From a virus (taxonomy: Duplodnaviria > Heunggongvirae > Uroviricota > Caudoviricetes), in the IMG/VR virus record IMGVR_UViG_3300046506_000279: a DNA stretch of 19,198 nucleotides; one strand, 5' to 3'. Below the pieces are notes generated by a model that was not told the origin of the DNA, searched no databases, and saw nothing but the letters and a program-made list of their open reading frames with translations. Below, in pieces: positions 2 to 19,198 of this stretch (the first letter of the stretch is position 1; each line of letters opens with the position of its first letter). Position numbers and translations under genes: made by a program.

Positions 2-2400
2 GTTGCCGCCCAAGGCCTTGCCGCTGGCGGTGAAGGCGCGCTTGGCGAAGTCGCCGGCCGGGCCGGCCAGTTCGCCCAGGTCGCGCGTGTAGTTCTCCTT
101 TTTGGTCCACAGGCCGCTGCCGGGCACCAGATTGCCCATGCCCATGCGGCCGGCGAAGTCGACCGGCATGCCGGGCAGCGCCGACAGGCCGTGGGTGATG
201 AAGTCGGCGCCGCCGTCGCCCAGCACGCCGGCCAGGAATTCCTGTTTCTTGCGCCGGCTCGAGAAGTTGTAGCCGAGCCGCTGCAGCACGCCGTCGATCG
301 CGTCTTCCAAGTCTTGCTCGAACGGCAGGCCGTCGGCGCCGCCCAGCATGAACAGCACCGCCAGCATGTACAGCACGGCGCGCTGGCCGGCTTTCCGTTC
401 GGGCGAGCCGGGGCGGCCGGCAAAGGCCATCTGGCTCAGCAGTTCGAGCCAGTTCACGGAATATTGCTTGAACGTCAGAAGGAGCCCGCCCACCGGGTTG
501 CGCGCCCAGCGCGGCTTGTTGCCGGCGTTATACACGAACTGGGTGCGGTTCACCGCCTCGGTGGCGAACGCGGTCGGGTTCGGCAAGCCTTCCTCGCGCG
601 CGGTGCGGTAGGCGGCGATGAAGGTGATCTTGCGGTTGGCCAGCTCGGCCAGCGCAAACAACTTGCCCCAGCCCAGTTTGACCTTGGCCAGGGTGTTGTG
701 GGCGGCGGCGCGCGCATCGCCCACCCTGGTGCCGTCGCCGGCCAGCAAGGTGCCCTTGCCGGCGCCCTGGGCCTGCAGGAAGTGGATTTCCTGCGGCGCC
801 ACCACGGCGGCCGCGTCTTTCAGCGCTTGCGCGAGGTCGGGGTCGGCGATGTCTTTCTTGGCGGCGTCGATGGTGGCCTGCTTGATGCGGGCGAAGGCTT
901 TTTTCACCCCGCCGTACTGGGACAGGTAAGGCAGGGTGATCGCGATCGGCTGGGTCGCATTCACCATGGCCGAGGCGACCGAGCCGCCGAGGAACTGGGC
1001 GAACATCAGGCCCGACAGGAAGGTGCCGCCGCTCTGCGGGTCGCGGATGTGCTGGCGCAGTTTCACCGCCTCGTCGGCCAGCTGGCCCTGCTGCTGGGGG
1101 ATGGCCTCCACCGCCTCGTCGATCTGGCCGCTGTGCAGGTTGCTGGCGGTCAGGCGCGCGTTGCTGTAGATGAAGCTGGCCAGCACCCGGCCCGGGTCTT
1201 CCGAGAAGCCGGCCGTGCCCTTGCGGTGGATCATGCGTTTCAGCGCGCTGCGGTTGGCCTTGGTCAGGCGCAGATAGTCCTGGTAGGCGGCGTCGCTGGC
1301 GTTGGCGTCGGCCCCCAGGCCCAGCATGGTGCCGAACAGTTCCACGGTTTCCGGGGAAATGCCGGCGAACAGCTTGTACTTTTCTTCCGATACCGTGCCC
1401 TGGCGCACCGTGGCGTGTTGGTGGTCGGCCTGCATCTTGCGCGCCATCTTGGCGGCGTCCTCGCTGTCCTCGAACATGCCGAAGTACACCTGCTGCTGGT
1501 TCTCGGTCACGTACACCGTGTATTTGCCGAAGCGCATCAGGGGCGCGTAGCCGCGGTCGATCAAGGCCTGGCCCTTGTCGGCCAGGTTGCCGATCTGCTG
1601 GGCGGTGGCCAGGTGCTGGGCCGCCAGCGCCGGGTCTTGCTGGGCCAATGCCTCGTAGTGGTGGCGCAGCAGCAGCGCGGCGCTGGCCAGGTCGGGCGCG
1701 GCGGTGGCCTGTTGCGTCAGCGCGCCGCGCGCGTCCTTGCCGCCCATCTTCAGCATTTCGGAAATGGTCAGGTTGCCCACGCTCTGGGCGATGGCGGCGC
1801 GAAATTCGCGGTACAGGCCGATCTGGCCCGGGTCCAGCTGGAACAGGGCGCGCAGCTCGGCGTCGCTCCACACCACGCCCGGCTGCAGCACGTTGTGCTC
1901 GTACAGGCGGTTGATGGTCTCGGCGTACACCGGCGCGGCCTGCATCCAGGTGTCGAATTCGGCCTGGTCGATGGCGCCGCGCAGCAGCAGCGCGGCGGCC
2001 TTGTCGGCGGCGCGCATGGTGGCCGCGTCGGCCTCGAGCTCGCTCACCTTGACCGGGCGCCCGCTCTCGTCGCGCGCCCACAGCAGGGTGCCTTCGAAGA
2101 TCGGCGCGGCGATGGCCTTGGTGTCGGCTGCCGATACCGCCTGCTTGCGGTTGGCGCCGGCGATGTCGCGCAGGTGTTCCAGCTGCGGCAGCAGGCGCGG
2201 CGCCCGCTCGGCGGCGGCCACGGCCACGCGCGACACCTCGCCCAGGAAGGACTGCACGGCGCGGTACACGGCGTTGAAGGCCGGGTGGCGCCGCGCCAGG
2301 TTGTCCATGGTGCCGATGGTCTTGTGCCACCACGATACCTTGCCGGTGCGGTCGAGGAAGTCGCCGACCTGGTAGCCGGCGGCCAGTTCCACCTGCTTGG
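2..2400 (-). other. PLxRFG-family C-terminal helical region (in giant CDS)
   Basis: Motifs GKVSWWHKTIGTM, IFEGTLLWARD, RGYAPLMRFGKYTVYV, KRMIHRKGTAGFSED, NPVGGLLLTFKQYS and GGADGLPF, recognised as typical of PLxRFG proteins. Hydrophobic segments LMFAQFLGGSVASAMV and AVLYMLAVLFMLGG. Confidence 0.85.
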
Positions 2401-5400
2401 CGTTGTTGTAGGCGTTGGACAGGACGGTGCCGAGGTCTTGGCGCAGGTTGCCCATCAGGTCGCTTGCGCCGGGCTCGCCCGGCGGGCGTGTGACCGCCTC
2501 CTGGGCCACGCCACCACCACCGCCACCTGGCTTGCCGTTGACAATCTTGATCTGGTCGGGGCGGAACACGGCGTAGGTGATCTGGCTATGGCTGCCGCCG
2601 CGCGGCTCCTTCATCTTCAGGCCGTCGTAGCCGGCGTCCACCAGTGCCGTCTGGAAGTCGCCCTGGTCGTAGCGGAACAAATGCCATGCGGCGATGTCCT
2701 GGAACCATGGGGTCAGGTCGAATTGCTTGATCACCCGTGCCGGCAGCGTCACGCCATGGTCGGCAAAGAACTGTTTCCATCCGGCCGGGTTGCGATACGC
2801 CTTGTGCGACAGGTCGAGCGGGTGCGCCAGCGCCAGGTAGGCGGTGGTGTACTTGATGTCGCGCGCGGTCTTGGCCTCATCCCCCGGCGCGATCATGCCG
2901 ACATAGTGTTCCTGCTTGTGGAAGCGCTTGATCCACTCCTTGCTTTCGGCGAAGTAGAAATACGGGTGGGTGCCGCCATTGCCTTTGTACTCGAACTGGG
3001 TGATCGCGTCCCGGCCGCCGTGGTAGACCGGCAGCGGCGCGCCGGTGGCCGGGTCGACCACCGTCGAGGCGCCGAACCAGTCCTTGAATGCTTGGGTGTT
3101 GGTCTCCATGGGCGCCATGTTAACCTCCGGCCCCCGCTGTGCAGCACGGCTGCTGTTGACGCCCAGCAGGCTCGGGTTGGCCGGATCGAAATTACCGTTG
3201 TTGCCGGTGGCGCTCTTGATCTGCCCGGCGTCGAAGGCGATGTAGACGTCGCTGTCGATCGGGCCGTAGCTGCCGTCTTCGCGCGTCAGCTGCTCGCGCC
3301 AGTTGCGCACCAGCATGCCGTCATGGCCGGCCTGCCTGGCGCTGCGCATCGCCTCGGCCAGCGATTGGCCGTGCGGGGCGGCGGCGTCGTAGCGGGCCGG
3401 GTTGCTGATGTGCAGGTACACCGGCAGCACGTTGCCGCCGTTCAGCGCGCCGTGCTGGCCGGCATACACGCCGGCAAACTCGGGGTTGGCGGCGAAGAAG
3501 AAATCGCCTGCGGTCGGCGTGAAGCCGAGCCGGTGCAGCATGTGCTGCAGCGGCGTGCGGGTGCGACCCTTGTCGTCGCGGAAGGCGCTCACGTCGTGCA
3601 TGGTGCCGTGGTACACCACGCGCGGCGTGCCGTCCGGGTTGACCACCTTCGATAGCCCGGCCGCGTTTGCTTGCAGCAGGAACTGGCGCGTCATATCATT
3701 CAAGGTGGGTGCTGTCGGCAAGGTGTTCCGGATAGGGCCGGGAGCGCTGTTCCCGCCCTGCGGACCCGTTGAATTCGTTGAATAACCGGCAGCATCCGCC
3801 CCTTGGGCCGGGCCTGCTTGTGGCGCAGCGCGGGGCGTCCTATCATTCAATGGCGGTGCCGCAGGTGCGGGATTCCCGTTAGGGTCGGTTGTTTGGCCCT
3901 CTGGACCCGACTGTGATGAAAGCCTGTCGGCATCCGCCACCGGCATCAAGTCCATCAACTCATGGTCGTAGAACAGGCGGCCATTGGCGTCCTCGCGCAC
4001 GCCGGCGGTCACGATGAAGTCGTTGCCGGCGATCCGTACCTTGGCGGCGAATGCCAGCATGCGCTGGGCCGCGTTCTTGACGTTGGTGGCGTCGGCCACC
4101 AGCACCCCATGCTCGAGCAGGGCCGGCAAGGCCGCCAGTGCGCGGATCTTGTCGATGCCACCGCCGTGCTGCAGGGTTTCCTTGATGCCGTGCGCGCGCA
4201 CTTCGATGGCCTGGCCGGTGGCCTGGTTGGTGTAGCCGCCCACCAGCTGCGCCTGGCCCCAGGCGCGCGCTTGCTTGCGCATCGCCTGCAGCGCGGCGTG
4301 CTCGTTGCTGCGGTTGGCGCTGATTTCATCGCCCTGCAGGGTCGCGACCGGGGCGCCTTGGGTCAGCCGGGTCGCCTGCGCGGCCTGCTGCCAGTCGCCG
4401 AACCAGCGCTTGAAGGCGTGGGTGGCGATCTGCGTCAGGTTGCCGTGCAGGCTTGCATCGGTGCTGCTGCTGCCGTTGTTCTCGGCCATCAGGTCGCGCC
4501 CCACGGCCAGCACTTGGCTCAGCAGATCGTGCTGGGCCTTCCCCATCCCGAGCACGGCGCGCACGATGTCCACAAACCGGTCCCACAGGCTGCGCGGGCC
4601 GCTCTGCACTTGCTGCAGGGCGTGCTGGAAGGCGGGGTTGGCGTGGGCCTCGGCCACGAATTCGTCGAGGTTGCGCATGCCGTAGTGGCTGGCCAGTTGC
4701 CCGCTGCGCTTGGCGTCGGCGTACAGGGCTTTCATCTGCATGGCCGCTTTTCCACCTTTGCGCAGGGCGCTGGCGGTGGCGGCGTGGACGAATTCGTGCA
4801 GCAGGTTGGTGGCGGCGCCGTTGGCTTCGAACAGCACCACATGGTTGCTGGTGGGTGCATAGCCGGCGCCGTGGCCTTGGGCCGGCATGCCGGTGGCAAA
4901 AGTGTAGTCGGCGGCATTGCCGGTGCCCACCGTCGGGTTCACCTGGTTGGCCAGCAGCTGTTCGGCCAGGGCGCGCTGGAACGGGGTGGCGCTGGTGGCG
5001 GCGATCTGGTGCAGCAGGTCGGTGGCGCTCGCGCCGCTGTCGATCGCGTGGTACAGGGTCTGGTCGGTGGCGCTGGCGGTGCTGGTCGCGGCCTGGTTGA
5101 ACAGCGGCAGGCCGGCGGTGGCCTTGGTGCGCAGGGTGTCGGTCAGGGTGAAGCCGGGCTGGTCCAGCGTGGCCGTGTCCGGTGCCGCCATCCAGGCGTC
5201 GAAGTTGGCGTATTCGGTCGGGCGTCCCTTGGGTTGGGCGATACCAACCGCTTCGACCTTGCCGCCGCCAAGTTTCTTGAGCACGGCGTTGACGTTCTGC
5301 GGCACGATCTGGTCGTAGAAGGCTTTCATGCCGTCGCCGCCCACTTTCAGGCCGTCGCCTGACAACTCGCCGGTCGGCTGCGCCATGATCTTTTCGGCCA

Positions 5401-8400
5401 GTTCCTTGCCGATCACGTCGTCGAGTGATTTGCCGGCCACATCGCCCAGCGGGCCGCTGCCGCGCAGCACTTCGCCAGTCGCGTTGTCGACATACAGGGT
5501 TTGGGCGCCCTGCGCAGTCAACTCGATCCGGACGCGGGTCGTATCCTTGGCGGCGGCGGCAATGTCCCATTCAATCGCGTTGACGGATTTCGACAGGTCG
5601 TAACGCTCGGCGCTTTGCTGGCCGTTGACGAACGCCACCTTGTCGTAGCCGTGGGCGGCGGCGTAGGTGATCACGCGCTTGATCGCCAGTTGCAGCCAGC
5701 CTTCGGTGCTGGTCACGAACGGGGCCGGCACCAGGCCTTGGCTGGCGCGCTGGGTATGGCGTTCGCTCAGGTCGCGGAAGCGGTTGATGGCGTCACGTTG
5801 GTCGGCGGTGTCGACTTCCCAGCGGTCCTGCCAGTCGCCATGGCTGCGCACCGCGGCCATGGCCTGGCCTAGGCTATCGAAGCCCAGCAGGTCGTTGGCC
5901 TCAAGCGCGGCGCGGGCGGCGCTGCCGGCGGCTTCCAGTTCGGCCTGGTGGTTGACGCCGCTGGCGTCGAAGCCCAGTTTCTTGCCCTGCTGTGCCCAGT
6001 CGGACTGCATTTCCTCGATGAACAGCACGCGGTGGCCGTCGGCGTCCACGCGGTCGTTCATGCGGATGTGGGCGACGATGTTCGGTTCGGCCCAGTGGCC
6101 CGACTGGTAATTGGCGGTGTGCTTGCCCGTCGCCTTGGCGATGTCGTCGCTGTCCAGTTCCATGGCGTCGATCATGGCCAGCAGGTCGGCGCGGCTGGCA
6201 CCGTCGGTGTCGGCGTCGTCATCGTTGCGCTCGACCAGCGTGCGCAGCTGGGCGTCGCTCAGCCCCTGCACGGTCGCGGGGCCGTCCATCGGCAGGGTCA
6301 GCAGCAGTTCGCGGTAGTGCGCGCCGCCGGGCAGGGTGTAGCGGCCGTACTTGGTGGCGCCGTCATTCCCTTCCTGCGCGCCATAGGCGTCGACCTCGCG
6401 CAGCGCGGCGATGATCTCGGCCCGGCCCTGGTCGTCGAACGGTTCATCGCCGGTGATCCGCTCATATTCCGTGCGCAACTGGGCGTCGGTCATCGCCTCG
6501 TAATTGACCGGCGGCGTACCTTTTTCCACTTCCTGCACCCGCACCCCGTTCTGGTCGAGGTAGGCGGCCAGGTCATCGCGGGTCAGCTTGTCCTTGGCGC
6601 GCAGGGCCAGGTAGTCGAGGATCCCGCTCCAGTCCAGTTCGTCTTTCTTGATGCCCAGCTTGGCGGCGTTGGCGCTCAGCCAGCTGGCCCACTGGTCGGC
6701 CGGCATGGTCGCTTGCTTGGCGCTGCCGATCTGGCGCGCCAGTTCGGAGTAGTAGCCGGGGGCGGCGCGCAGGTTGCCCATCAGGGTGCCGGCATTGGCT
6801 GCCAAGGCGTCCTTGATCCGCGCGAAGTCGAGCATGTGCAGATCGCTATTGCTGAGCACGAAGGCGTTGCCGTCGCGCGCGAACGGCACGCCGGCCTGTT
6901 GCAGCCGTTCATACAGGCGCGTGCTGTCGTCGGACAAGGTGCTTTCGCTGCGGAATGACGCCTCCGGGAAGCGGGCGGCGAATTCATCCAGACCGGTCAG
7001 GAACAGCGCCGTGGCGATTCCCTTGCCACGCGGTCGCGCATCGTCGTCGCCGCGCACTACCTCCATGTCGTTGGTGATCTCGTCATCGACATGGGCGAAG
7101 CCCACGCTGATTTGGGTGGTGCCGTCGCGCCAGATGTACTGCGCTGCGTCGTGCCCGCGTTCCTGTTTGGTGAAGCCTGCGCGCAGGTTGCCCATCAGGG
7201 GCTCGCTGTCGCTGGCGTCTTCTGCCGTGCTCAGGTTGGTGATGGTGCCTTCGTGCGAATACACCTGGCGGGTGTTGCCGTCATCTTGGCGCAGCGTGAT
7301 GCGCAGGTTCCCGGCCTGCATGGTGTCGATCTGTTCGACCGTGCCCTCGATCGCAGCGCGGCCGGTGTCGGTCGGTGCGAAGCGGATGCGCTCGTCCACG
7401 GCCACCGGCGGTGGGGTGGGTTCGGCGGCGGTGGCGACGGTCGGCACCAGCCCGTCCAGAATCTCCTGGGCGGCGCGCACCGCGTTGTCGGTCAGTTGCC
7501 GCTGCCAAGCGCCGGTCGAGGGCGCCCATTTGAAGCCGGCGCTTTTCAGTTGCGCGCGGATTTCGGCGGCGGGCTTGCCGTCGAAGAATACCTGCAGGCG
7601 GTTGAGGGCGGCATTGCGCACCAGGCGCGGGCCGGTGGCTTCCACCGCGTCGCCGTTTTCCTTGGCGGCGCTGATGGCGGCCTGGGCGTCGGCGTCGTCG
7701 GCGTGGGCCTCGGCATCGGCGATGCGGCGGGTGATTTCCTCGACCCGGTCGCGCAGGCGGCGGATTTCGGCGTTGTTGTTTTGCAACTGGTAGGCGGGGA
7801 TGCCGGTGCGGCCGGCGAAGTCGGGCTTTTTCAGTGCGGCGATCTGGTCCGGCTGGTAGCCCAGCGCGGCCAGTTGCGCGTCGTCGTCCTTGCGCAGGGC
7901 GGCGTTGGTGGCCTTGTACAGTTCCTGGGTCTGCTCGCGGCCGGCCAGCTTGGCCTGGGCGTTCTTCAGTTCGGAGGCGAGCGACTGGTCGACGGCGCCG
8001 CGCAATACCCGGGTCAGGCGCTTGGCGGCCTTGTCCAGGTATTCGTTCGCTTCTTCGGCGCGGCGGTCGGCGCTCTCGCCTTTCTTGCGGTTCGATTCCA
8101 CCGGGAAGCGGGCCGGGCCGGTGATCATGCTGCTCATCACGCGGCTATGGGCGGCCAGGTAGCTGTTGGTCAGGGCCGCGTAGTGGGCGGCGGCGCTGTT
8201 GAATTCGGCCACGAAGTCGGCCTGGCGGTCTGCGGGGGCGGCGTGGTAGGCGCGCTCGAAGCGCTGCCACAATGCCATCACGTCGCGGAAGTAGCTGCGC
8301 CGCACCGAGGCGCCGCGCGCTTCCGGGCTGTGCGAGGTGCCGGCAAAGGCGCGCACGGCGGCGCCCAGCGGGATCGCACTTTCCGAAATATGCACCGGCA

Positions 8401-11400
8401 GGCTGGCGGCATAGTCGTGCATGCCGCTGTACTGGCCGTCATGGATGGCTTCGGCCAGCGGGTCGCGCAGCATGCTGCCGCGCGATTGGTCGTGCTCGTT
8501 CCAGCGCTTGCCGGTCTGTTCCTGCACGGCCGCCAGCGCGGCATCGCGCACATCCTCGTACTTGGCGAAGGGCTGGGCCTTGGCGATGGTGCGCACGATG
8601 GCGATAGGGTCGGTGGTGGCGGTTGGCTCCTGCTTCGAACGGGCGGCCACAACCGGTTTCAGGCTCGGGTAGTCCTCCAGCACGGCATCCGGTACCGGCT
8701 TGCCTTCGGCGGCGGCCATGGTGACGGCCGCTTCGTGGTGGCTGGCGGCCTGGGCGTCGAGGCGGTCAAAGTCCTTGGCGCCGCGCAGGGTCGCCAGCGG
8801 GGTCGGTTTCACGCCCAGTTGCGGGAAGTCGCGGCCGGCGCGCACGGCGTCGAGGTAGGCGGCGCGTGTCAGTTCCCAGGGTTCCTGCTCGGGCGTGGTG
8901 CCTTCCAATTCTGCTGAATTCGACGGAATAGTGGCCGCATCTTCCTTGGCCACATAGCCCTCGCGGCGCAGGTAGTCGATACCGGCGCTGGTGGCGGCTT
9001 TCTTGGCGTCGCGCAGGCCGTCGTAGCGTTCGCCGTCGTCGCCTACCTGCCACTTGCCGTTGCCAATCTTCTGCACGTTGGCAATGGTGATGCTGCCGCT
9101 GCCGTCCTGGCCGTCCTCGCTGAACATCAGGCGGTGGGTGGTCACGCCGTCGCGCTGGCCAAGGTCGCGCCAGGTCATGTGCTGCTGGGCTTGGGCGGGG
9201 GTGAGGGTGTCGGCGGCTTCGGTGGTAGCAGCGGCCGGCGCTTCGTCCTGCTGGTACTCGGCGCGCACTTCTTCCGGCACATCATCGCCGCGCGTGATCG
9301 CCTCGTTGACCAGCCGTTCGTGCTGGCCGTAGGCGTGCGAATACACGTCGTCTGCAGCCTTGGCCGGCACATTGCCGCCGCGCTTGCTGATGTAGGCGCC
9401 GGCTTGCGCTTTCGCATAGTCGTCGCGGGTCAGTTGCCACGGCTCGCGGGCATCGTTGGCGGCCGGCTGCGCCTTGATCGCTTCAGTGGCGTCCTTCAGC
9501 TGGTAAGCCTTGGTGGCGGCGTCGTGCAGCAGGTCGGCCAGCTCGAGCGGGTCGCTGGCTTCATTCATCGCCGCTTTCAGGGCGGCGTGCTGCTCGGGGG
9601 TGACGTAGCCTTCGGTGCTCAGCTGATCGAGCTCGCTCGAAGCGTCCCGGGCTTCGTCCAGCGCGGCCTTGTTCATGGCGCGGGCGGTGTCGGCCCAGCG
9701 TTCGTCGGCGCGCTTGGCGACCAGCAGCTGTTCGAAGCTGCCTTCCGTGTTGCGTTCGGCGTCCACGCGGGCGGCGTCGGCCAACAGGCGGCGCGCCACT
9801 TCGTGGTGGAACGGCGCCATGTCCTGCTTGCTCATGCCGCGGTAGGCGGCAAACGCTGGGTCGTTGTAGACCGCGTCTTCGATCGCGCGGCGGGCGCTGT
9901 CGGCGCGCTGGTAGTCGCCGTAGGCGCGGCGCTGTTCGGCTTCAGCCTGGTCGCGCGCGTAGTAGGCTTGCAGTTCGGCGTCGGATTCGGTCCAGACTTG
10001 GCGCTCGCCATCCCAGAAGCCGGGGCGGGAAGCCAGGAAGGCGGCCGGTACGCCGGTGTCTTTCGCCTTGGCGGCCACGTCTTCCGGGGATGGGTAGGCC
10101 GGGTCGAGGCGGCGCATTTCGGCCGCTTCGGGCTCGCTCAGGCCGTGGTCGCGCAGCTTGGCGCGCAGGGCGTCGAAGCGGGCGGTGTTTTGGGCGGCAG
10201 TTGGCTTGGCCGGGGCGGCGGCCGGCGTTGCTGCTGCCTGCTGCTCCACCATGCCGATCAGGTCGCTCATGCTCTTGACGTCGCGTACTACCGGGTGGGT
10301 GCCGCGGTAGTTGCCAGTGTCGGTCAGGTACCAGCCGTTCATGCCGCTGCGCACCTGCCACGGCTTGCCGTCCAGTTTGACGATATTCCCGTCTTCATAG
10401 GGGTTGGCGAAGTTGACCTTGAACGGGGCGCGCTGGGGGCCGGTCATGGGCTGCGGTTCGCTGGCGGCAGGCGTGGTGGTGCCTTGCTCGGCTTCCAAAC
10501 TGGCCATCGGCGCGCTCTGGGTGGTGCCGTTGTCGTACTTCACCATCGCCACATGGATCAGCGGGCCGCTGCCGATCATGCCCTCGATCACGCCGGTGTG
10601 GCCGGTTTTCGTGTTCTTGACGCGGTCGCCCACGTCGTGCGGCGCGTAGCCTTGCGTCAAGACACCGGCACGGTAATGCTTTTCCCGCATCGGCTTGAAG
10701 CCGTCGGGGATGGCCGGCGGTTCTGCGGCCTGCGGTGCGGCTTGCGGTGCCGCCTGCTCTGCGGTGTCGATGATCTGCTGCAGGGTATCGCGCAACGCCT
10801 TGGCGCGGCCCGCTTCGCTGATGCTGGGCTTGCGGTGGTTGACGGCGCGCTGGTCCCACAGGTGGTCGATGTCGCGTACCAGCATGTCGCCGATGTTGCG
10901 CGGCAGGCTGCTGCCGTGGATCAGGTCGACCAGGCCCATGCCGCGCTGGCGCAGGGCGTCGGCGTCGGCGCGGGTGTCCAGCGCTTCTTTGTCCTGGATG
11001 TCGTGCAGCAGGATGGCGGCGGTGCGGCCCACCAGGGTGCGCTCGAGGGGCTTGGGTTCGGCGGCCGGGGCGGGTGCCGGTGCGGCCGGCTTGGCCGGTG
11101 CCTTGGTCTTGGCCTCGTCGGCGTACCAGTTCTTCAGCCAGGCGATCGCAGCGTCGAACGGGATGCCGGGCGCCGAGCGCGCGCCGCCGCTGGCGGCAAC
11201 CCGGTAGGTATCCTTGGCGCGGTCGTACCAGTACAACTCGGTCCCGGTGTTGCTGCCGGGCGAATGAATGATCAGGGGGTTGCCGCTCTTGAGGGTGTCG
11301 TTGGTGCCGCGCACGGTGAAGCCGGCGGCCTCCAGCTTGCCCACCGGCGTATCGGCCCGTGCGGCACGCTCGGCCGCTTCCTGTTCGTCCAGTGCGCGGC

Positions 11401-14400
11401 GCTTGTCGGCGGCCCGGCGCGCGCTGATGTCGGCCTGGTCGGCAAAGGCCTGGTCCGATTGCTCGGCGGCGGCCAGCCATGCGGTCTCCAGCGCGGCCTC
11501 GTCGGGTGCGGTGGCGGCCATCTTGTGGATGGCGTTGGCGAGCGTGTCTTTGCTGGCCGTGTCGAGCTTGCTGCGGGCCACGTTGATGGCGGCAGCCGCG
11601 CTGGTGGCGCCGCCGTTGCCGATCGCCAGCCCGCTCTGGTGCTCGATGACCAGCCACGGGTTTTTCTTGGCGCCGTGGCGGCGGCCCACGTAGGCGCGCA
11701 CGCCGTGCGGCAGGTCGGTCACGTCGCGCACGTCGGTGTACAGGTTGGGGGTGCCGTCCTTGTCGTTCTGGGTGAAGCGGAACGGCTTGCCGATTTGCTG
11801 GGCCAGCGCGTGTGCGGCCACCTGCTCGCCCTGTTCGAGCATGTCGTGGATCGCGGTTTCCGGGCTGGTACCCAGCCGGATCGTGCTCTTTTGCGGGCGC
11901 GGGCGGCCCTTGAAGCCTTCGGTGGCCATGACCTGGTCGCGGAAGCGGGTCAGGTTGTCCTTGTTGTTGGCGACCGTGAATTTGCCATCGCCGGGCACGT
12001 CGAAGGTGATGAAGTGGGCGGCTTTGCGGGCGGCCATGGCACGCTGCTCGGCGGCCCTGACCTTGGCGCGGGCAGCGTCGCGCTGGCTGGGGCTGCTGGC
12101 CTTGTTCACCGCTTCGCGCGCGTCCTCGAGCGCCCGTGCGGCCGCGTGCAGCTCGGTGTCCTCGGCGTTGGTGGTGGTGTCGGCACCGGCGGTCAGGATC
12201 GCGGCGTTGATCTTCTGGATCAGGTCGGCGCGCGCTTCCTCGTTGTTCATGATCGTGTGGTCGGCCGCCTTCTTCAGCGAAGCGGTGATCACGGTGGGGG
12301 TGGCGGGTTCGGTGTGGCCGGCCTCGATGTGCTCGGCCGCCAGGGCCGGCTGCGGCGCGGCCGGGACTGCCTGCTCGGCCTTGGTAGTCTGGCCAGGCGT
12401 GCCAAAGTGCTCGCGCACCAGATCCTGGTCTGCCAGCGCCTGCAGCCCGGCCTCGACATCATCCGGGTGCTCGGCCTTGATGGTGGCGCGCATGGCTTCC
12501 ACGCTTTGTTTGTTGCCGGCCAGCTCCATCGCGGCGTACATGGCGCGCACCTGGTCGTCGGAAAGGGCGTCCACCTTGGCGTCGTTGATCTTCCCGCGCG
12601 CCTCGAGGGCGGCGTAGGCGGGGCTGCCTTCGAGGTGGACCGGGCTGTCGGCCGGCGCGGCGGGGGCCACTTCTGGCACTGGCCGGGCTTCCTCGATCAG
12701 GCCATACGAGCGCATCGCGTCGACCACTTCCACCGGGCGCAGGAAGTCCATGCGGCCGTTGGCCTTGCGCGCGGCGATGGCCTTGGCGGCGTCGATGATG
12801 CCGTCGGTGGTGGTCTTGCTGATGCCCAGGTCGGTCAGGCCGGCGCGGATCTTGGCCAGCTGCTTGCGGTAGTCGCTGTCGGAATACAGCTTCCCGAACG
12901 GCACCGCTTTGCTGACCAGCGCGCTGATGGTGCCGGCAGGGTACTGCTTGGCGGCAGTGCCCGGCTTTTTGAAAAGCTCCGCCGCTTTCTTGCTGTCGCT
13001 GCCGTTCGGCTGGCGCGCCTTGGGCGCTTCCACCTGCGGCGCGGTCTGGCGGCCCGGCGGCTTACCGGCAGCCAGCGTCCCGTAATCGTTGGGCATCACG
13101 GCAAAGCCGGCCCCGCTCTCGGCGCGCACCACCAGGCGGCCATTGTCGGAAATCGACTCGACAGTGCCATTGGCGTGGTTGCCGTTTTGGTTCGAATAGA
13201 TACCGCTGGCGAAATGCACCTGGTCGCCGACCTTGAACGGCGCTTGCGGCGGCGTGGCTGGTGCCGGCACTTCTGCGGCGGCCTCGGCTTTCTTCCAACG
13301 GCCGTCCCATTTCATGCTCGACGTTTCACGCAGGCGACCGTTGCTGGATACCGTCATTTGGCCGTCGATCTTGACGTGCGGTGCGCCGCCGCGCTGGACG
13401 ATCGTGCCGGTATAGGTCGCGCCGCCAAGGAACGCGGACGGCACGAACGTCTGCACCTTGTCGCCGATCGCCAGGCCAGCCTCTTTCATCTTGGCCAGCA
13501 GTGCCGCGTCGGTGCCGGCTTTTTCGGCCTTGTAAATCTCTTGCAGCGTCGGGTAGACGCTCTTGTATTCGTCGGTGGCGTGGTACTTCTGCAGCGGCAT
13601 GTTCAGCTGCTTGGCGCGCGCGCTGACCCAGTCCATGGCGTCGGCGTAGGTTTCAAACGATGGTGCGGCCTGCGATGCGGCGCCGATGCCAAGGCGCTCG
13701 TTGAGCGTGCCGGGGCGGTGCTCGGTGCTGGTGATGCCGCTTACGCCGAACGCATCGAAGGCGCTGCGCGAGTCGACCTCATTCGCCACTTCGCGGGCGC
13801 GGGCCACCATCGCCTCGGCTTGTTCCTTGGTGTCGAACGGGCCAGCTAGGCGTGCCACGCGGCTATCGCGCAGCATGGTGACGTAAAACTTCTGCTCGCC
13901 CTCGGGTGCCGGCACTTCTGCGGCCGGTGCCGGGGGTGGGGCGTCTACAGCCGCTGGTTCTTCTGCCGCAATGGGTGGCTTCCCGACAAGCGCCTCGATG
14001 TGCGTCTGTCCGTTGCGCTTGGCCACCTGGAGTCGATGCCAACCGTCGATGATCGTAACGCGGCCATCGCTTTGCAGTTCGTAGATTGGGCGCGATACGG
14101 TTTCGGCATCGCGGATGGCTTTCAGGCGCTCATCAAGCTGTTCGGGCTCGGGCGCTTCATCCTGGGCAATGATGCTACCGACCGGCACCCGCGCGATGCG
14201 CCAATCCCAGTCTTGGGCCTCGTCAGCCTCCAGCATGTAGATGGCGTCGTCGCTTGCCGCGAACGGGTCGGTTTTGCTGCCTTCGGCAAACCACGAAGGC
14301 ACTTCGCCCGCCCGTTGCCCAGCCTGCAGCCCGCGCCGCGCGATTTCGTCGGCAATCGGCTTGGCGCGCTTGGGCAGTTCTTGCTGGGCGCGCAGCAGCT

Positions 14401-17400
14401 GGGCGTCGGTCATGGCCTTGATCGACAGGCGGTTTAGCTGCTGGGTGGTCAGGTCGTGCTCGGTCAGCGCTTCCGGGTCGACCGTTTCGGCGTCCTGCGC
14501 GCGGCGCTCCAGTTCGCTCAGCTCGCGGCCCGGTTCGGCGCGCTGGTCGTCGCGCACGATGCGCGGGCGCGGGCGGCCATCGGCCATGTCCGACTGCATG
14601 ATGTGGTGCAGGGCGTCGTTGCGCGGGCGGTTCTCGGTAATCAGCGCGCGCAGGCGGTTGGCGTCGGCCGACACGTTGCCGTCGTAGCCGGATGCCAGGA
14701 TCGCGTCCAGCCGCGGCTGCAGGCGTTCGTCGGAGGCGGCGCCCAGGATATGCACGCCGTGGATGTTGTCGCCGTACTGGCGCAGCAGGTCGGTCAGTTC
14801 GGCGTCGGACACGCCTTCCACCGCCGACGGGATGCCGATGATCGGCGCGATGTCGCCGGCCGGGTCCAGGCCCAGGTGGCGCATCATCTGCTCATACGCG
14901 GCGGTCAGGCTCAAGGGGCCGCCCTGCAGCGGCACGATCGCCTGCAGGCCGAAGCCGTTGATCTGCTCGGCGTACTTTTCCACCAGGGCCAGCGAGGCGG
15001 TCTGGTCGGTCACGACGTCGGGCATGACCAGGAACATGCGCCCCATCGCCATGCCGGCGCTGGCCTTGCTCAGTTCGCGCTCGATCTCCTCGTAGCGGTC
15101 AAACAGCGCGTCCGGGTCCAGTTGCGCGGGGGCGGCCGCTTCTCTCTGTTCCTTCTCCGCCGCTTCCGCTTCGCGCTGGTTGCGGCCGTGGATGGTGTAG
15201 GCGCCGGAATCGACGAACAGGTAGGTGCCCTCGGTGTCGGCCAGTTGTTGGGCGATCTTGGGGGTCGAGACTTTCGACAGTTCCAGCACCGAAATGCCGA
15301 CGTTTTTACCGTTGGCAAACATGCGGGTGAAGTCGCCCGGTGCCGACATGCCTGACAGGAAGCGCAGCGGCTGCTCCGGGGTGCCGTACACGCCCGGCTT
15401 GAATTCGCCGTCGATGTCGACCGGGTTGCCGGCGTTGGCGACGGTGGCGGCCAGGCGGCGCTGGGCTTCGAGCTCGGCGGCCGGGTGCGACTCTGGGATC
15501 ACCAGTTCGTGCGCGACGTTGTTGGTCTTGGCCTGCGCGTCCAGCGCGCGCAGGTACTCGCCCAGCTGGCCGCGCTGGACCCCGATGAAGCCCTCGGTGC
15601 CGCTCGGCTCGATGCCGGGCGCGACGAAGCCGGCCTTCTGCAACTGCTGCACGTAGGCGGCGGCCACCTCGCGGTAATCGCTGGGGGCGGCGATGAACAC
15701 GCTGCTGAAGTTCTTGTGGGCGAAGTCGGCCAGGTCCACGCCCTCGGCCAGCAGCGCGGCGCGGCGCTCGGGCGTCATCGCCTGTTCGTAGTTCTCGATC
15801 GGCTTGTCGGCATGGATCAGGCCATGCTTGGCCGAAATCACGTACACGTCGGGCCGCGCGCGCGGGTCTTCCGGCATCCATTTGCGCAGCATTTCAAACA
15901 TGCTGCCCTGGTACAGGTCGGCCGCCTTGTGGATGCCGGCCAGCTTGCGGTCGGAACAGGCGATCAGCAGCAGCGGGCGGGCGTCGGTGGGGTCGTAGGC
16001 GTGGATCTGCTGCTGGGTGGCGGCGGGCGCCACGGCGCTGGCGGCGCGCGCGGCGCGGCGCGCCTCGATCTCCCTGGCCACCGGTTCGGCGCGCTTGGGC
16101 AGTTCGCGCTGGGCGCGCTGCAATTGCGCGTCGGTCATGGCCTTGATCGACAGGCGGTTTAGCTCTTGCGTGGTCAGTTCGCGCGCGCGCTCGGGCAGGG
16201 CGCCGATGGCAGCATCGCTGGCGCGGTCTGCCGCGTCGGCTTGGGACAGGGCGGTGCGCGCTTCCTCGGCCGAACCGTAGTCTTTGCCGGCGCGTTCGTC
16301 GCGCCATACGACGGCGTGCTGGCGGTTCAGGGTCGGGGTGGCGGTGCGCGCGCCGACGGTAACGGGTTCCTTGGCGGCCAGCAGGGTGTCGCGCTGGCGT
16401 TTGCCGTCCAGCCAACCGGCTTCCCATGCTTCGCGCTCGGCTTTCTTGCGCACGTCCGACGGCGGGTGCATCGCATAGCCGTCCAGGGCGGCAGTCTGCC
16501 CGCGCTTTACCAGCGCCGGGTCGTGGTTGGTCTGGGCCTGGCTGCCGGCTGCATCGCGCGTCGGTTCTCCTGTTGGTGCAGGCGTTCCATTCTCGGCAGG
16601 CGGGGTGGGCGCAGCCGGGGCGGTCGTTTCGAGCGGGTGGACGTAGGCCAGCACCTGCTCGGCGCTCAGGGCGGCAACGGCATCCTCGCTGTCGGTGCCG
16701 TCGTGGTAGTCGGCAATGGCGTGGTAGGCGGCCTTCCATTGGCGGGCTGAAATGTCGTTGGCGAACGGGGCCAGTTTCGGGTTGGCGCGCATGCCTTTGC
16801 CGGCGGCGCCCATGGCGGCGGCAAACGAGCGAAAGCCCTTGCGTACCAGCAGTTCAATCACTTTGGACAGGGCCGGCAGCAGGTCGCCAGCGGTGTAGAG
16901 CTGGCCGCGGGCGTTCAGTTTGGCGCCGGACATATCACCCAGCACGTCGCCCAGGTGGCCCCAGGCGTCGGCCAGTTCGGCGTCGAGCGGGTCGGTTTCT
17001 GCGGCGGGCTCGGCCTTTGGCGCAGTGTCCGGCGTAACGGCGGGCGCGCTTGGCGCGGATTTGGCTTCGTTTGGCGCATTCGGCGCGGCGGGCGCGGACT
17101 GCTGGTATGGCGAAGCGAATTCAGGCGCGCTTTTACTTGGCGTCGGCATGTCGTCGTTCATCTTGACGTTCCATGCCAATTTCGCATCAGCTACCGGGAT
17201 GCCCAATTTGGCGGCGGCAGCTTTGAAGTCGTCGGTGCCGGGGCGCATCAGGCTGGCACTGTGCGGCATTGCAAAGGCGACGGCGTCGCCCAGTTTGCTC
17301 CATGCGCTGCGGCGGGCGCCCGGCGTTTCCGTGGGGGCTGCCGCTGCGTCCGGGGCCGTGTCCTTCGGCATGCCGAAAATCTTGTTGCCGCGGCCGATCG

Positions 17401-19198
17401 CGCCGGCTTGCTGCAGGGCGTCCTTGATCTGCTGCGGGGTGGCGTGGTCCGGTACCGTGACGTCGGCGCCGGTGTTGAAGTCCTGGGCGGCGTACTTGCC
17501 GATGTGGACCACGCCGTTCTGGACGGTGATCGGTTCGGCGCTGTTGGGCAGCTTGCCGAGCGACAGCGTGGCGGGGGCGGCGGGCAGTTCGGGCAGCGGG
17601 AAGCCGGCGCCTTGCCACTTCGCCAGCTGGCCTTCGGTCGGCGCGGTCGGCATGCCTTCGTCGGCCAGGTTGTTGCTGCCGTCCAGCTTGTAGTAGTTGG
17701 CGATCAGGCTCAGCGGGTCGCCGGCCAGCATGCGGCCGCGCTTGATCGTTACCAGGTGGATCGCCGACAGGCTCTTGCCGGTGCTGGTGACTTTCTTCTG
17801 GTTGGCCAGGAAATGCTGGGTCACGCCGTTGTGCTCGACCGTGATCGGGTGCCACGATCCCAGCGTCGCGTGCGGCAGTGCCTCGAATGCGGCGCGGATC
17901 TTTTGCGCGGCCGTCGCCGGGCTGGCGGCGGCTGGTGCCACTTCTGCCGCTTTGTCGGCGGTCTGGGTCGCGCCATCGGCCACTTCGGCACTGGGGAATT
18001 CGTGCGCCAGCGGGATCAGGTCGCGGATCGGGGCAGCGAAGCGGATCACCCGGATCGGGTCGTTGTCTTCCAGCCTGGCCAGCCACTGGTGGTGGCCGTC
18101 GAGGACGTGGTTGTCGCTCGAGACCAGGATGGCGCGGTCGCCGCCTTCATGGGCCTTGGCCTGTTCGACCTTGGCGTGGGAAAATTCCTGCTGGGTCGGG
18201 TGCAGGGTGCTGGGCAGCACTTCTTCCTGCTGGTGCGGGACGCCGCGCGCGGCCAGGAAGTTGACCAGGGCGCCGCGGTGCTCGGCTTTAACCTGCGGCA
18301 TGTCGGCGCGCGGGATGGCCAAGGTGCCGGAATCGGGGGCGAAGGCGGTCCAGTCGCGGTCGATCTGGTGGCCGGCCAGCTCGGTGACGGGGTCGGCGGC
18401 GGTTGGGGCGGCGGCCGGCTGCGCGCGGATACCCGGGATCTTGCGCGGGACTTGCAGGTTCCCGGCGAAGGTATCGCTGAACTTCGACGTGGGCGTTTCA
18501 AGCAGCAGGGTGAACGTCCCATCGCCATTGTCGGTGACTTGTACCACCCGGGCCGGCCTGCCTTGTGGCGTGATCCAGTCGCCTGCCTTGAGTTGCGCAA
18601 CGGTGGTTTTTTCGGTGCCGATGAAGCTCACGCCAAGCGGCAGGCCGAAGGCGTTGCGTTCCACCTTCTCGGCGGCCGGTGCGTCTTCGGCTAGTGCCGG
18701 CTGGGCGTCAGCGGCCGTACTTGCAGCAGATACATCAGGTCCAGCGCCTGGTGCAGGTGCGGCGGGAACGGCTGCTCGGTTTTCGCCAGCTGCTTGATCA
18801 GCTTGGCGTCGGCCTTGCTCACCAGCTTGGACTGGCGCAGCAGGCGCAGCGCTTCCCAGGCCGTCATTTCGTTGTCCAGCATCAGCGGCATGTCCTGCAT
18901 GGGCGGCTCCGGTGGCGGTGGGGGGGGCTTTGCGGCCGTTCTTGACGAAGGCCTTGAAGGCGGTCATCAGCGGTTCGCGCTGGCCGGCCGGTACCTTGGC
19001 CTTGTTCAGTTCTTTCCAGAAGTCGGTGCCGTTTTTCGAGCGCTGGGCGGCGGCCAGCAGCTCGGGCGGCAGGGCGGGGGCGGGCGCGGCGGCTGTGGGC
19101 GCGGCGGCCTTGCGCTCGGGTACCGCGTCGACCAGTTCGTTGGGGGCGGCAAACACCGGTTCGTTGAAGGCCTGCGCGGCGGCGCCGTGGCGCTCGAC
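2..19198 (-). CDS. Giant PLxRFG-domain polyvalent protein (>=6,399 aa, partial at both ends); probable phage/MGE internal-virion or ejected anti-defence protein
   Basis: Manual translation of the minus frame whose codons start at positions =1 mod 3 shows no stop from 19198 (VERHGAAAQAFNEP...) to 2 (...FAKRAFTASGKALGGN). Third codon positions are mostly G/C. Contains YAPLMRFGKY (PLMRFG at 1526-1543) and a long series of motifs typical of polyvalent proteins. Confidence 0.96.
2540..3105 (-). other. ADP-ribosyltransferase domain 2 (ART-PolyVal-like)
   Basis: AFKDWFGASTVVDPATGAPLPVYHGG (YHGG 3014-3025), YFYFAES, AYLALAHPLD, AGYDGL, YAVFRPDQIK. Confidence 0.8.
3160..3655 (-). other. ADP-ribosyltransferase domain 1 core (ART-PolyVal-like); its N-terminal FKRWFGDW motif lies at 4391-4414
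   Basis: SKVVNPDGTPRVVYHGT (YHGT 3602-3613), DFFFAANPEFAGVYA, GNVLPVYLHISNP, AGHDGMLVRN, VYIAFDAGQIKSATGNNGNFDPANP. Confidence 0.88.
3671..3699 (+). promoter_or_regulatory. Putative antisense sigma70-like promoter P-A
   Basis: TTGCAG (3671-3676), 17-nt spacer, TATCAT (3694-3699; 5/6 match to TATAAT). Lies directly upstream of hairpin RNA A. Confidence 0.55.
3704..3800 (+). ncRNA. Putative structured antisense RNA A (~97 nt)
   Basis: GGTGGGTGCTGTCGG (3704-3718) pairs with CCGGCAGCATCCGCC (3786-3800) as an uninterrupted 15-bp stem with 3 G-U pairs. G-U pairs favour the + strand. Internal hairpin AGGGC...GCCCT at 3734-3759. Paralogous to RNA B. Confidence 0.55.
3818..3846 (+). promoter_or_regulatory. 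Putative antisense sigma70-like promoter P-B
   Basis: TTGTGG (3818-3823), 17-nt spacer, TATCAT (3841-3846). Same geometry as P-A, 147 nt downstream. Confidence 0.55.
3852..3938 (+). ncRNA. Putative structured antisense RNA B (~87 nt)
   Basis: GGCGGTGCCGCAGG (3852-3865) pairs with CCTGTCGGCATCCGCC (3923-3938): 14 bp with two single-nt bulges. Internal hairpin AGGGTCGG-TTGT-TTGGCCCT at 3881-3900, at the same offset from the -10 box as in RNA A. Confidence 0.55.
3955..4290 (-). other. LPD3/PBECR-like (barnase/RelE-type nuclease-fold) domain inserted in ART domain 1
   Basis: YTNQATGQAIEVRAHGIKETLQH...ALAALPALLEHG...FAAKVRIAGNDFIVTAGVREDANGRLFYDHEL, a pattern I recognise from LPD3-type domains. 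Confidence 0.65.
4540..5060 (-). other. Zincin-like metallopeptidase (MPTase) domain
   Basis: LLHEFVHAAT (HExxH, 4784-4798), YGMRNLDEFVAEAHANPAFQ (third-ligand Glu motif, 4646-4666), SLWDRFVDIVRAVLG. Confidence 0.88.
5100..6760 (-). other. Conserved uncharacterised phage virion-protein domain ('EEMQSDW' domain)
   Basis: YYSELARQI, GIKKDELDWSG, TKYGRYTLPGGAHYRELLLTLP, SGHWAEPNIVAHIRMNDR, LFIEEMQSDWAQQG (5996-6016), PAPFVTSTEGWLQLAIKR, GYDKVAFVNG, VIGKELAEKI, GGDGMKAFYDQIVP, QPGFTLT...GLPLF. Confidence 0.7.
6790..7175 (-). other. GNAT-family acetyltransferase domain
   Basis: Motif A RGKGIATALF (RGKGIA 7013-7030) and downstream STLSDDSTRLYERL. Confidence 0.72.
7450..8370 (-). other. Plasmid/ICE-type region resembling parts of DUF3560-containing proteins
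   Basis: GTSHSPEARG, HSRVMSSMITGPARFP, PDFAGRTGIPAYQLQNNNAEIRRLRDR, NRLQVFFDGKP...LKSAGFKWAPSTGAWQRQLT. Confidence 0.55.
13982..14210 (-). other. ParB/Srx-like domain 2
   Basis: RPIYELQSDGRVTIIDGWHRLQVAKRNGQTHIEALV (DGWHR 14033-14047). Confidence 0.75.
14335..14452 (-). repeat. Direct repeat copy 2 (C-terminal flank of DUF6884/TGT cassette)
   Basis: Encodes LTTQQLNRLSIKAMTDAQLLRAQQELPKRAKPIADEI. 37-nt exact identity (14403-14439) with 16128-16164. Confidence 0.92.
14600..15370 (-). other. tRNA-guanine transglycosylase (TGT)/DpdA-like TIM-barrel domain
   Basis: Ordered TGT-type motifs: FVDSGAY (15197-15217), MPDVV (15011-15025), IVPLQG (14921-14938), GVHILG (14741-14758), VSADAN (SAD 14663-14671). 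Confidence 0.72.
15542..15979 (-). other. DUF6884-like (YaaA-related) domain
   Basis: LLLIACSDRK...AADLYQGSMF...VYVISAKHGLI...IENYEQAMT...FIAAPSDY...GFIGVQRGQLGEYL. Confidence 0.75.
16060..16177 (-). repeat. Direct repeat copy 1 (N-terminal flank of DUF6884/TGT cassette)
   Basis: Encodes LTTQELNRLSIKAMTDAQLQRAQRELPKRAEPVAREI. 37-nt exact identity with 14403-14439. Confidence 0.92.
16397..16519 (-). other. Rmf/CrpP-like Trp-Gly motif
   Basis: LVKRGQTAALDGYAMHPPSDVRKKAEREAWEAGWLDGKR resembles the Rmf pattern RGxxAxxxG-xn-P-xn-RxxWxxGW. Confidence 0.45.
17995..18345 (-). other. ParB/Srx-like domain 1
   Basis: IPRADMPQVKAEHRGALVNFL...LHPTQQEFSHAKV...DRAILVSSDNHVLDGHHQWLA (DGHHQW 18083-18100). 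Confidence 0.8.
18691..18900 (-). CDS. Nested overprinted 69-aa hypothetical protein (MQDMPLMLDNEM...LTPSRH) in a different frame inside the giant CDS
   Basis: 63/69 codons end in G/C, versus about 23/70 in the host frame over the same interval. GGAG Shine-Dalgarno (18907-18910) lies 6 nt before the ATG, and the ORF ends in TAG. The host frame here becomes a low-complexity A/G/Q/P linker. Confidence 0.7.
   Translation of the reverse strand: MQDMPLMLDNEMTAWEALRLLRQSKLVSKADAKLIKQLAKTEQPFPPHLHQALDLMYLLQVRPLTPSRH

Follow-up and report, generated by a model that had tools for sequence, protein, structure and literature searches.

That a gene can be embedded out of frame in a larger one is familiar from tiny viruses. 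Among tailed phages, to our knowledge, such genes are rare and are mostly spanins of the Rz1 type. In phage lambda, the whole gene of the o-spanin Rz1, with its own start, lies inside the gene of the i-spanin Rz, in the +1 frame and on the same late mRNA (PMC6139136, PMC5295617). In the overprinted genes of small viruses and phages, such as B in A and E in D of phiX174 or L of MS2, one frame bears most of the constraint and the other is tolerant or disordered (PMC8227390). In 2017, Iyer et al. described the main-frame domains of the polyvalent proteins that phages and conjugative elements encode, and mentioned no out-of-frame embedded gene (PMC5512222). Here we analyze a stretch of 19,198 nucleotides (nt), hereafter the window, from the tailed-virus record IMGVR_UViG_3300046506_000279 of IMG/VR, a sequence of 94,661 bp with direct terminal repeats in which the window occupies bases 54040-73237. 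A single minus-strand frame without any stop crosses the entire window (2..19198) and belongs to a giant gene of the polyvalent type, and a small gene appears to be nested in it at 18900..18691.

This arrangement resembles that of lambda Rz1/Rz in that a tailed double-stranded DNA phage would harbour a complete small gene in the +1 frame of a larger one. However, Rz1, a secreted lipoprotein whose lipobox contains a Cys, acts as the functional partner of Rz, whereas the nested product, of 69 amino acids (aa), contains neither a Cys nor a hydrophobic signal sequence, its host gene encodes a polyvalent virion protein of about 7,400 aa and not a spanin, and no sequence or fold similarity to Rz1 was found. 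The lack of a lipobox Cys and of a signal sequence, together with the nature of the host gene, ruled out that the product is an o-spanin of the Rz1 type. The overlaps of phiX174 and MS2 share dual coding with the nested gene, but they are found in tiny genomes under size pressure and not, as here, in the linker of a giant modular protein of a 94.7-kb genome. The host gene itself is a member of the polyvalent group, with ART-PolyVal, LPD3, DUF6884 and SLT domains. On the basis of these comparisons, the putative nested gene is an out-of-frame embedded phage gene, that is to say of a known kind, in an unexpected host gene, and its family is newly described.

We estimate at roughly 0.8 the probability that 18900..18691 truly codes for a protein and lies, as an embedded gene, in the +1 frame of the gene for a giant polyvalent virion protein. 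The nested open reading frame (ORF) extends on the minus strand from an ATG at 18900-18898 to a TAG at 18693-18691 and, with its stop codon, comprises 210 nt. We rejected its length as evidence: at 68% GC the stop-to-stop stretch ranks only 16/161 in the +1 frame of the window. Since length is so unremarkable, it is the switch in composition and the comparative evidence that lift the nested ORF above chance. The G+C content at third codon positions (GC3) over this stretch reaches 64/70 (91.4%) when read in the nested frame, as against 23/70 (32.9%) for the host frame; this recount agrees with the original prediction, which had given about 91% versus about 33% over 210 nt. Across the window, the mean GC3 of the giant ORF is 5537/6399 (86.5%). 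When the whole 19-kb window was scanned with 120-nt sliding windows, the host-frame GC3 had a mean of 0.865 and a standard deviation of 0.093, and its minimum, 0.275, was located in the nested stretch. Between 18958 and 18644 it stays below 0.6 while the +1 frame climbs to 0.90-0.97. As the scan shows no second takeover, the frame switch is real, sharply bounded and the sole one in the window. The only other dip of the host-frame GC3, at 3943-3734 (0.47-0.57), is weak, sees no alternative frame take over and coincides with the LPD3/hairpin region. Read in the host frame, the overlap (18692..18901, minus strand) is a low-complexity linker rich in Ala, Gly, Pro and Gln that ends with ...AADAQPAL. 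It contains 24 Ala, 9 Gly and 7 Pro among 70 residues and is barely conserved, as befits the filler linker that the original prediction had seen in it.

The comparative evidence comes from relatives gathered through the first conserved cargo domain that follows the nested gene (17894..18436, minus strand, motif VLDGHHQW), which is common to 173 IMG/VR stretches. Eighty IMG/VR loci, designated here by L numbers, were fetched with this domain and searched by tblastn, then by jackhmmer/hmmsearch on six-frame segments. Homologues of the nested peptide were found in L032, L065, L040, L009, L042, L007/8, L006, L027, L035/37 and L021, and divergent shorter forms, ending with ...LQWMPRPxRLH or ...CAPSPxxEH, in L002-4 and L013/L028. 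Altogether, homologues of the nested gene were found in at least 17 IMG/VR relatives, whose GC contents are 44-68%. Others are carried by Thalassomonas phage BA3 and by short metagenome contigs. Every IMG/VR homologue lies directly upstream of the shared VLDGHHQW domain. At all of the 12 loci checked (GC 44-68%), the homologue occupies the +1 frame of an ORF of 1,400-2,200 codons or more, and GC3 favours the nested frame throughout. In 18/19 contexts checked, no stop interrupts the host frame over the length of the nested gene. In low-GC members, a +1 frame is open for such a length at just 0.5-3% of positions; the chance of an open +1 frame is 0.005-0.2 per locus, and the product over 11 lineages is about 1e-13. 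The homologues that keep the frame were one of the checks by which the original prediction could be judged, and they exist in number, in the same +1 frame.

A profile built on ten members was then compared with 1.84 billion representative proteins and retrieved 87 clusters at E<=1e-3. These proteins measure 59-189 aa, nearly all of them 59-80, and the longer ones carry evident out-of-frame junk at the N-terminus. The match extends to the C-terminus, which reads ...LLQxxPPTxSLH and terminates with His in 66/87 clusters. Family members derive almost wholly from contigs shorter than 2 kb, on which the giant ORF is truncated, so that a gene caller is able to pick the small one. Of the seven metagenome contigs inspected (one of them represented by two identical copies), six have a host frame that is open over their entire length.

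None of the 87 clusters corresponds to an in-frame segment of a large protein. This point disposes of the idea that the three-helix segment is truly an in-frame domain of the giant protein, displaced by compensating frameshifts due to mutation or to sequencing error, for instance in the run of eight C that precedes it. Such an origin could be considered, since a homopolymer, the classic source of indel errors, stands at the upstream boundary and the normal codon bias of the host frame returns directly after the segment. But at least 17 independent assemblies, which differ widely in sequence and in GC content, show the out-of-frame layout, nested stop included, the domain was never found in frame inside a large protein among 1.84e9 representatives, and the alignment runs exactly to the conserved C-terminal His, then to a stop. 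We give this explanation next to no credence. More generally, the recurrence across relatives and the joint open-frame probability of about 1e-13 exclude sequencing error, a compensated frameshift and chance.

The cleanest test of selection was provided by L098 and L099, two contigs 95% identical over the region, by comparing 360 nt of flanks with the nested ORF. The flanks contain 29 differences, of which 24 are synonymous in the host frame and 3 in the nested frame. Inside the nested ORF the balance is reversed, with 2 host-synonymous and 7 nested-synonymous changes among 13 differences (Fisher test, p=5.8e-5 for the host frame and p=0.0046 for the nested frame), and replacements in the host reading of the overlap are frequently radical (A>K, L>T, P>T, Y>H). 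The same direction is seen in pairs that are more distant (L027/L035, p=6e-4; L006/L021, p=0.003). Over all pairs, the differences at nested codon positions 1/2/3 are 0.604/0.461/0.571, so that the host third position, which is the nested second, is the least variable. In the adjacent domain, which is coded by the host frame only, host positions 1/2/3 give the ordinary pattern 0.347/0.274/0.626, the third being the most variable. In close pairs, substitutions read in the nested frame fall in the order third > first > second position. Of the two frames, it is therefore the nested one, and not the host one, that is under the purifying selection which the original prediction had left to be checked. 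On the other hand, when the nested codons were shuffled, the host frame came out stop-free with a probability of 0.18-1.0 per locus (product about 1e-5). The host frame is thus kept open beyond expectation, and both frames would be used, the nested one for its sequence and the host one merely as a spacer.

These substitution patterns also bear on the possibility that the region is conserved as a nucleic-acid element or that the host linker is constrained, with the open +1 frame as a by-product. The element could be a regulatory site, an RNA structure or a hotspot of recombination at which domains are shuffled. Two features would fit such an explanation: the nested gene is located where modules of a highly mosaic protein meet, and its tail is constrained in both frames. 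However, substitutions follow the codon periodicity of the nested frame, nested-synonymous changes are in excess, homology between the proteins can be recognized at 20-40% identity although the DNA is saturated there, a protein fold is confidently predicted from the alignment, and the host-frame peptide of the overlap is just 19% identical among relatives. We thus judge a nucleic-acid element or a linker constraint very unlikely.

How would the small protein be produced? In the window, a Shine-Dalgarno-like (SD) GGAG lies at 18907..18910 on the minus strand, 6 nt 5' of the nested ATG; the GGAG (18910-18907), the ATG (18900-18898) and the TAG (18693-18691) of the original prediction were all confirmed. 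This ATG is the first of four in the nested frame and the one with an SD; the alternatives are at 18891, 18882 and 18867 (18865..18891, minus strand), the last being aligned with a Met column filled in 66/92 family members. The duplex energy of the GGAG with the anti-SD is -5.8 kcal/mol, within the top 6.4% of all ATGs of the window. A scan of 18400-19198 for an internal promoter gave none. Nearly every locus displays an SD-like motif (GGAG, GAGG or AGGGG) 5-9 nt 5' of an ATG that is in frame and lies close to where the open stretch begins. With anti-SD energies corrected for the number of candidates, the best candidate ATG ranks among the top 10% of the ATGs of its own locus in 17/23 loci, where about 2 would be expected, and a Met is present near the N-terminus of all members examined. 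The SD motif and the ATG are conserved across relatives, and they would constitute the gene's own initiation signals.

The nested frame could in principle be entered otherwise, by a programmed +1 frameshift or by transcriptional or DNA slippage at the C8 homopolymer run (18920..18927, minus strand), which is directly upstream of the frame switch and is the only conceivable +1 slippery site. The outcome would be a truncated protein of about 980 aa, made of the SLT/ejection module and a three-helix end, alongside the full-length one. The shift is geometrically possible, the nested frame being the +1 frame and open from 19005 to the TAG; the C8 run sits right where the codon bias switches, and initiation inside a translated ORF is generally inefficient. 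Dropping one C of the run would join the N-terminal 900 aa of the giant protein to the nested frame. Nevertheless, no homopolymer or slippery motif is common to the relatives, the C8 run being found in the window only, and in four lineages (L006, L027, L035 and L007) a nested-frame stop located 3-4 codons upstream of the ATG leaves a frameshift almost no room. The conservation of SD and ATG well above background and the Met near the N-terminus of all members examined also argue against it, as does L089, where the small gene exists without an upstream host frame. Lambda G/GT and dnaX tau/gamma are similar to the nested arrangement in that a second product ends in an alternative frame of the same mRNA, but they rely on a conserved slippery site and have no start of their own, whereas the nested gene has no conserved slippery site and a conserved SD and ATG. 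Because the SD and ATG are conserved, stops lie close upstream, no slippery motif is shared and L089 lacks the upstream host frame, we favour independent internal initiation, which we hold to be probable, over a +1 frameshift, which appears improbable.

We propose that the small protein is made through its own SD and ATG on the late mRNA of the giant gene, its synthesis ending at the TAG. With such an internal initiation it would be co-produced with the giant protein, yet as a separate polypeptide. In the overlap, selection would operate on the nested frame, the giant ORF needing only a stop-free spacer rich in Ala, Gly and Pro.

The product is best described, from alignments and models, as a predicted three-helix protein of about 58-69 aa with a conserved tail ending in His, whose family is nearly always embedded at this linker. 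AlphaFold2 predicts a three-helix bundle with a mean predicted local distance difference test (pLDDT) value of 80 from 10 sequences; with 96 sequences, the pLDDT rises to 89.8 (95-98 in the core) and the predicted template modelling score to 0.70. The helices of the nested product are predicted at residues 14-23, 29-41 and 47-60 and are followed by the conserved C-terminal tail ...LLQVRPLTPSRH. The conserved positions of the family are those of the hydrophobic core, Pro46 (93/96), Leu49, Leu58, Gln60, Pro63 and the terminal His. The net charge spans -14 to +10; such a variation, with a conserved core, Pro46, Leu49, Leu58, Gln60 and tail, weakly suggests a protein-binding adaptor rather than a nucleic-acid binder. 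In fold searches made with two models, the best VIA-align rows were generic three-helix or sigma-region-4-like proteins, and the ESM Atlas, searched by shape and by features, gave nothing above the generic three-helix level. The sole meaningful fold row was BFVD A8HNW3, which is protein BA3_0004 of phage BA3 (probability 0.97, 31% identity, the best BFVD fold match). The predicted complex of the nested protein with the adjacent VLDGHHQW domain obtained a score of 0.00, a value that counts neither for nor against their contact.

Several observations weigh against a genuine gene translated from its own start. Initiation within a translated ORF is, as said above, usually poor, and the SD of the window is merely moderate, its rank becoming 0.23 after correction for the four candidate ATGs. 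The tail is constrained in both frames (nested ...PPTxSLH followed by the stop, host ...ADAxPAL), and some of its conservation may therefore serve the host protein. The nested protein has no Pfam match, and with PHROG only E>=0.028 was reached. No structural relative came out of Foldseek searches of PDB, AFDB clusters and BFVD (E>0.07) or of VIA-align (best Z 4.0), a failure to match not being proof of a new fold. In phages F116, Itty13 and vB_PaeM_USP_25, no homologue was seen up to 3 kb away from the shared domain. The carriers of the nested gene have no host domain in common other than the VLDGHHQW domain, through which the loci had been fetched. Finally, on the tree of this domain the carriers are clustered yet patchy, with 9 changes as compared with 14.4 for shuffled labels and at least 6 that are forced. 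Concerning the tail, the host reading ...ADAxPAL is that of high-GC members. The last nested sense codon is CAC (His) in 17/20 DNA sequences, even in genomes of 42-50% GC (18691-18696 in the window, with the stop). The host Leu at the nested end is invariant because a His codon followed by any stop codon must read Leu in the host frame.

The patchy distribution indicates that the nested gene travels with the linker junction but is repeatedly gained or lost. The linker upstream is nearly unalignable, with 18% identity among relatives. One carrier, L090, has a different polyvalent protein with ddrB-ParB, LPD5 and LPD1 domains. In relatives devoid of the nested gene, we observed other +1 stretches upstream of the shared domain whose alternative-frame GC3 is much higher than that of the host frame (e.g. 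0.89 vs 0.55). They are located in L053 (3111-3308), L029 (2964-3428), L018 (3339-3503), L023 (3216-3398), L011 (3327-3497), L017 (3591-3956), L050 (3561-3797) and L038/L039/L043/L046/L048 (e.g. L039, 3516-3842). These stretches may be further, unrelated genes embedded in polyvalent linkers. In Pseudomonas phage Itty13 (L084, NC_070969.1, 5759-12175), the coding sequences PQC19_gp02 and PQC19_gp03 are opposite in strand to the tblastn match of the VLDGHHQW domain, and the giant gene may thus be annotated there on the wrong strand.

The giant gene extends from 75679 to 53564 in the genome, which represents about 7,371 codons. Its product matches the Pfam families ART-PolyVal (9.6e-31), LPD3 (6.4e-17), DUF6884 (7.6e-13) and SLT (1.3e-11), the SLT transglycosylase domain being N-terminal; the part found in the window (2..19198, minus strand) is that of a polyvalent protein of internal-virion/ejection type. 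With these four domains it is, judging from its domain content, a phage polyvalent protein sensu Iyer et al. 2017 (PMC5512222), that is, one that combines many unrelated effector and LPD domains in one polypeptide. The genes that precede it encode an internal virion protein (phrog_511), a DNA methyltransferase and a virion structural protein. Because virion genes are its neighbours, the giant protein is probably packaged in the virion and ejected. The overlap with the nested gene corresponds to residues ~914-984, between the module bearing the SLT domain and the first cargo domain. The latter has no Pfam match at E<=0.01 and is ParB/Srx-like through motif resemblance alone.

What could be the function of the small protein? 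Our guess, a weak one, is that it most likely works as a partner to the giant protein, helping for instance with folding, with packaging or with the silencing of the cargo inside the producing cell. The chaperone, immunity protein or regulator suggested by the original prediction would likewise be guesses. Another hypothesis is that the embedded gene is real but its product unrelated to the giant protein, a host-directed accessory (e.g. for anti-defence or host takeover) lodged in a tolerant linker. One could invoke for it the patchiness among relatives and the absence of a co-occurring host domain, the huge variation in charge, as expected of a fast-evolving interface, and the fact that polyvalent proteins are themselves conflict weaponry (PMC5512222). 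On the other hand, wherever the context comprised enough DNA, the position was constant, within the linker that immediately precedes the first cargo domain of giant virion proteins. Furthermore, no free-standing copy was found elsewhere in phage genomes, and in GenBank phages and plasmids only the BA3 gene was found, which is also embedded. Such an unrelated accessory is a possible explanation, to which we lend limited confidence.

As regards its origin, the codon usage of the nested frame is genome-like and that of the host frame is not. The exception in arrangement is L089, a Logan contig of SRR30140746 (1-1029), where the homologue (786-974) comes after two small genes, of 130 aa and of 57 aa (zinc-ribbon-like), with a 78-nt gap and a strong SD. 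A host-like frame opens downstream only at 854, within the homologue, and there is no host frame upstream. L089 may thus represent an un-embedded, ancestral-like arrangement. Since the nested codon usage is genome-like and L089 is un-embedded, the data weakly suggest that the small gene is the older one, later read through by the giant ORF, and did not arise de novo. The codon usage, and the incomplete embedding of the small gene in L089, likewise give a hint of a captured-gene origin. A more complete and speculative scenario, which we put forward with some doubt, would be that the small protein is an obligatory partner of the giant one, docking via its ...PPTxSLH-COOH tail as a packaging adaptor or chaperone or as an inhibitor of the cargo in the producer, in a broad group of podovirus-like phages. 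The two genes would have been fused by reading the older small gene in its -1 frame, the linker being this overprinted frame.

The only cultured-phage example found is BA3_0004 (YP_001552273.1) of Thalassomonas phage BA3, a distant homologue (profile E of 7.6e-4 against the 1.84e9 proteins) which likewise lies in the +1 frame of a giant gene, BA3_0002. Its annotation, which dates from 2007, is that of a hypothetical protein and includes an N-terminal extension of 46 aa that is out of frame; the internal ATG is at 5992 in L086. The papers that mention BA3 say nothing on it. A second annotated coding sequence inside BA3_0002, BA3_0003 (L086, 8947-9291), is situated downstream of BA3_0004. In GenBank phages, tblastn with four family members gave only BA3 (E=4) and a spurious opposite-strand match in a Vibrio phage. 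No match was obtained by tblastn of the window's family member against plasmids or by blastn of the region against phages, and a word-indexed protein search with the family profile returned the window's own protein alone. The family is widespread and unannotated, and the literature searched contains no description of BA3_0004 or of embedded genes in polyvalent proteins.

Altogether, the core claim of the original prediction, a real overprinted gene facing a host frame that acts as filler linker, is supported by the homologues, by selection and by the conserved SD and ATG. Embedded genes of this sort stay invisible because gene callers forbid such overlaps, and a family of at least 87 clusters (at 50% identity) has in this way escaped annotation, except on short contigs with a broken giant ORF and in phage BA3. 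The filler linkers of polyvalent proteins would thus be able to hide real genes. The locus would also offer a clean natural example of dual coding, with one frame selected for its sequence and the other only for its openness. For the giant ejected virion proteins, which are poorly understood, the small protein would be a new player that could matter for their folding, their packaging or their harmlessness in the producing cell. If it binds the giant protein, it would provide a handle for the study of giant ejected proteins.

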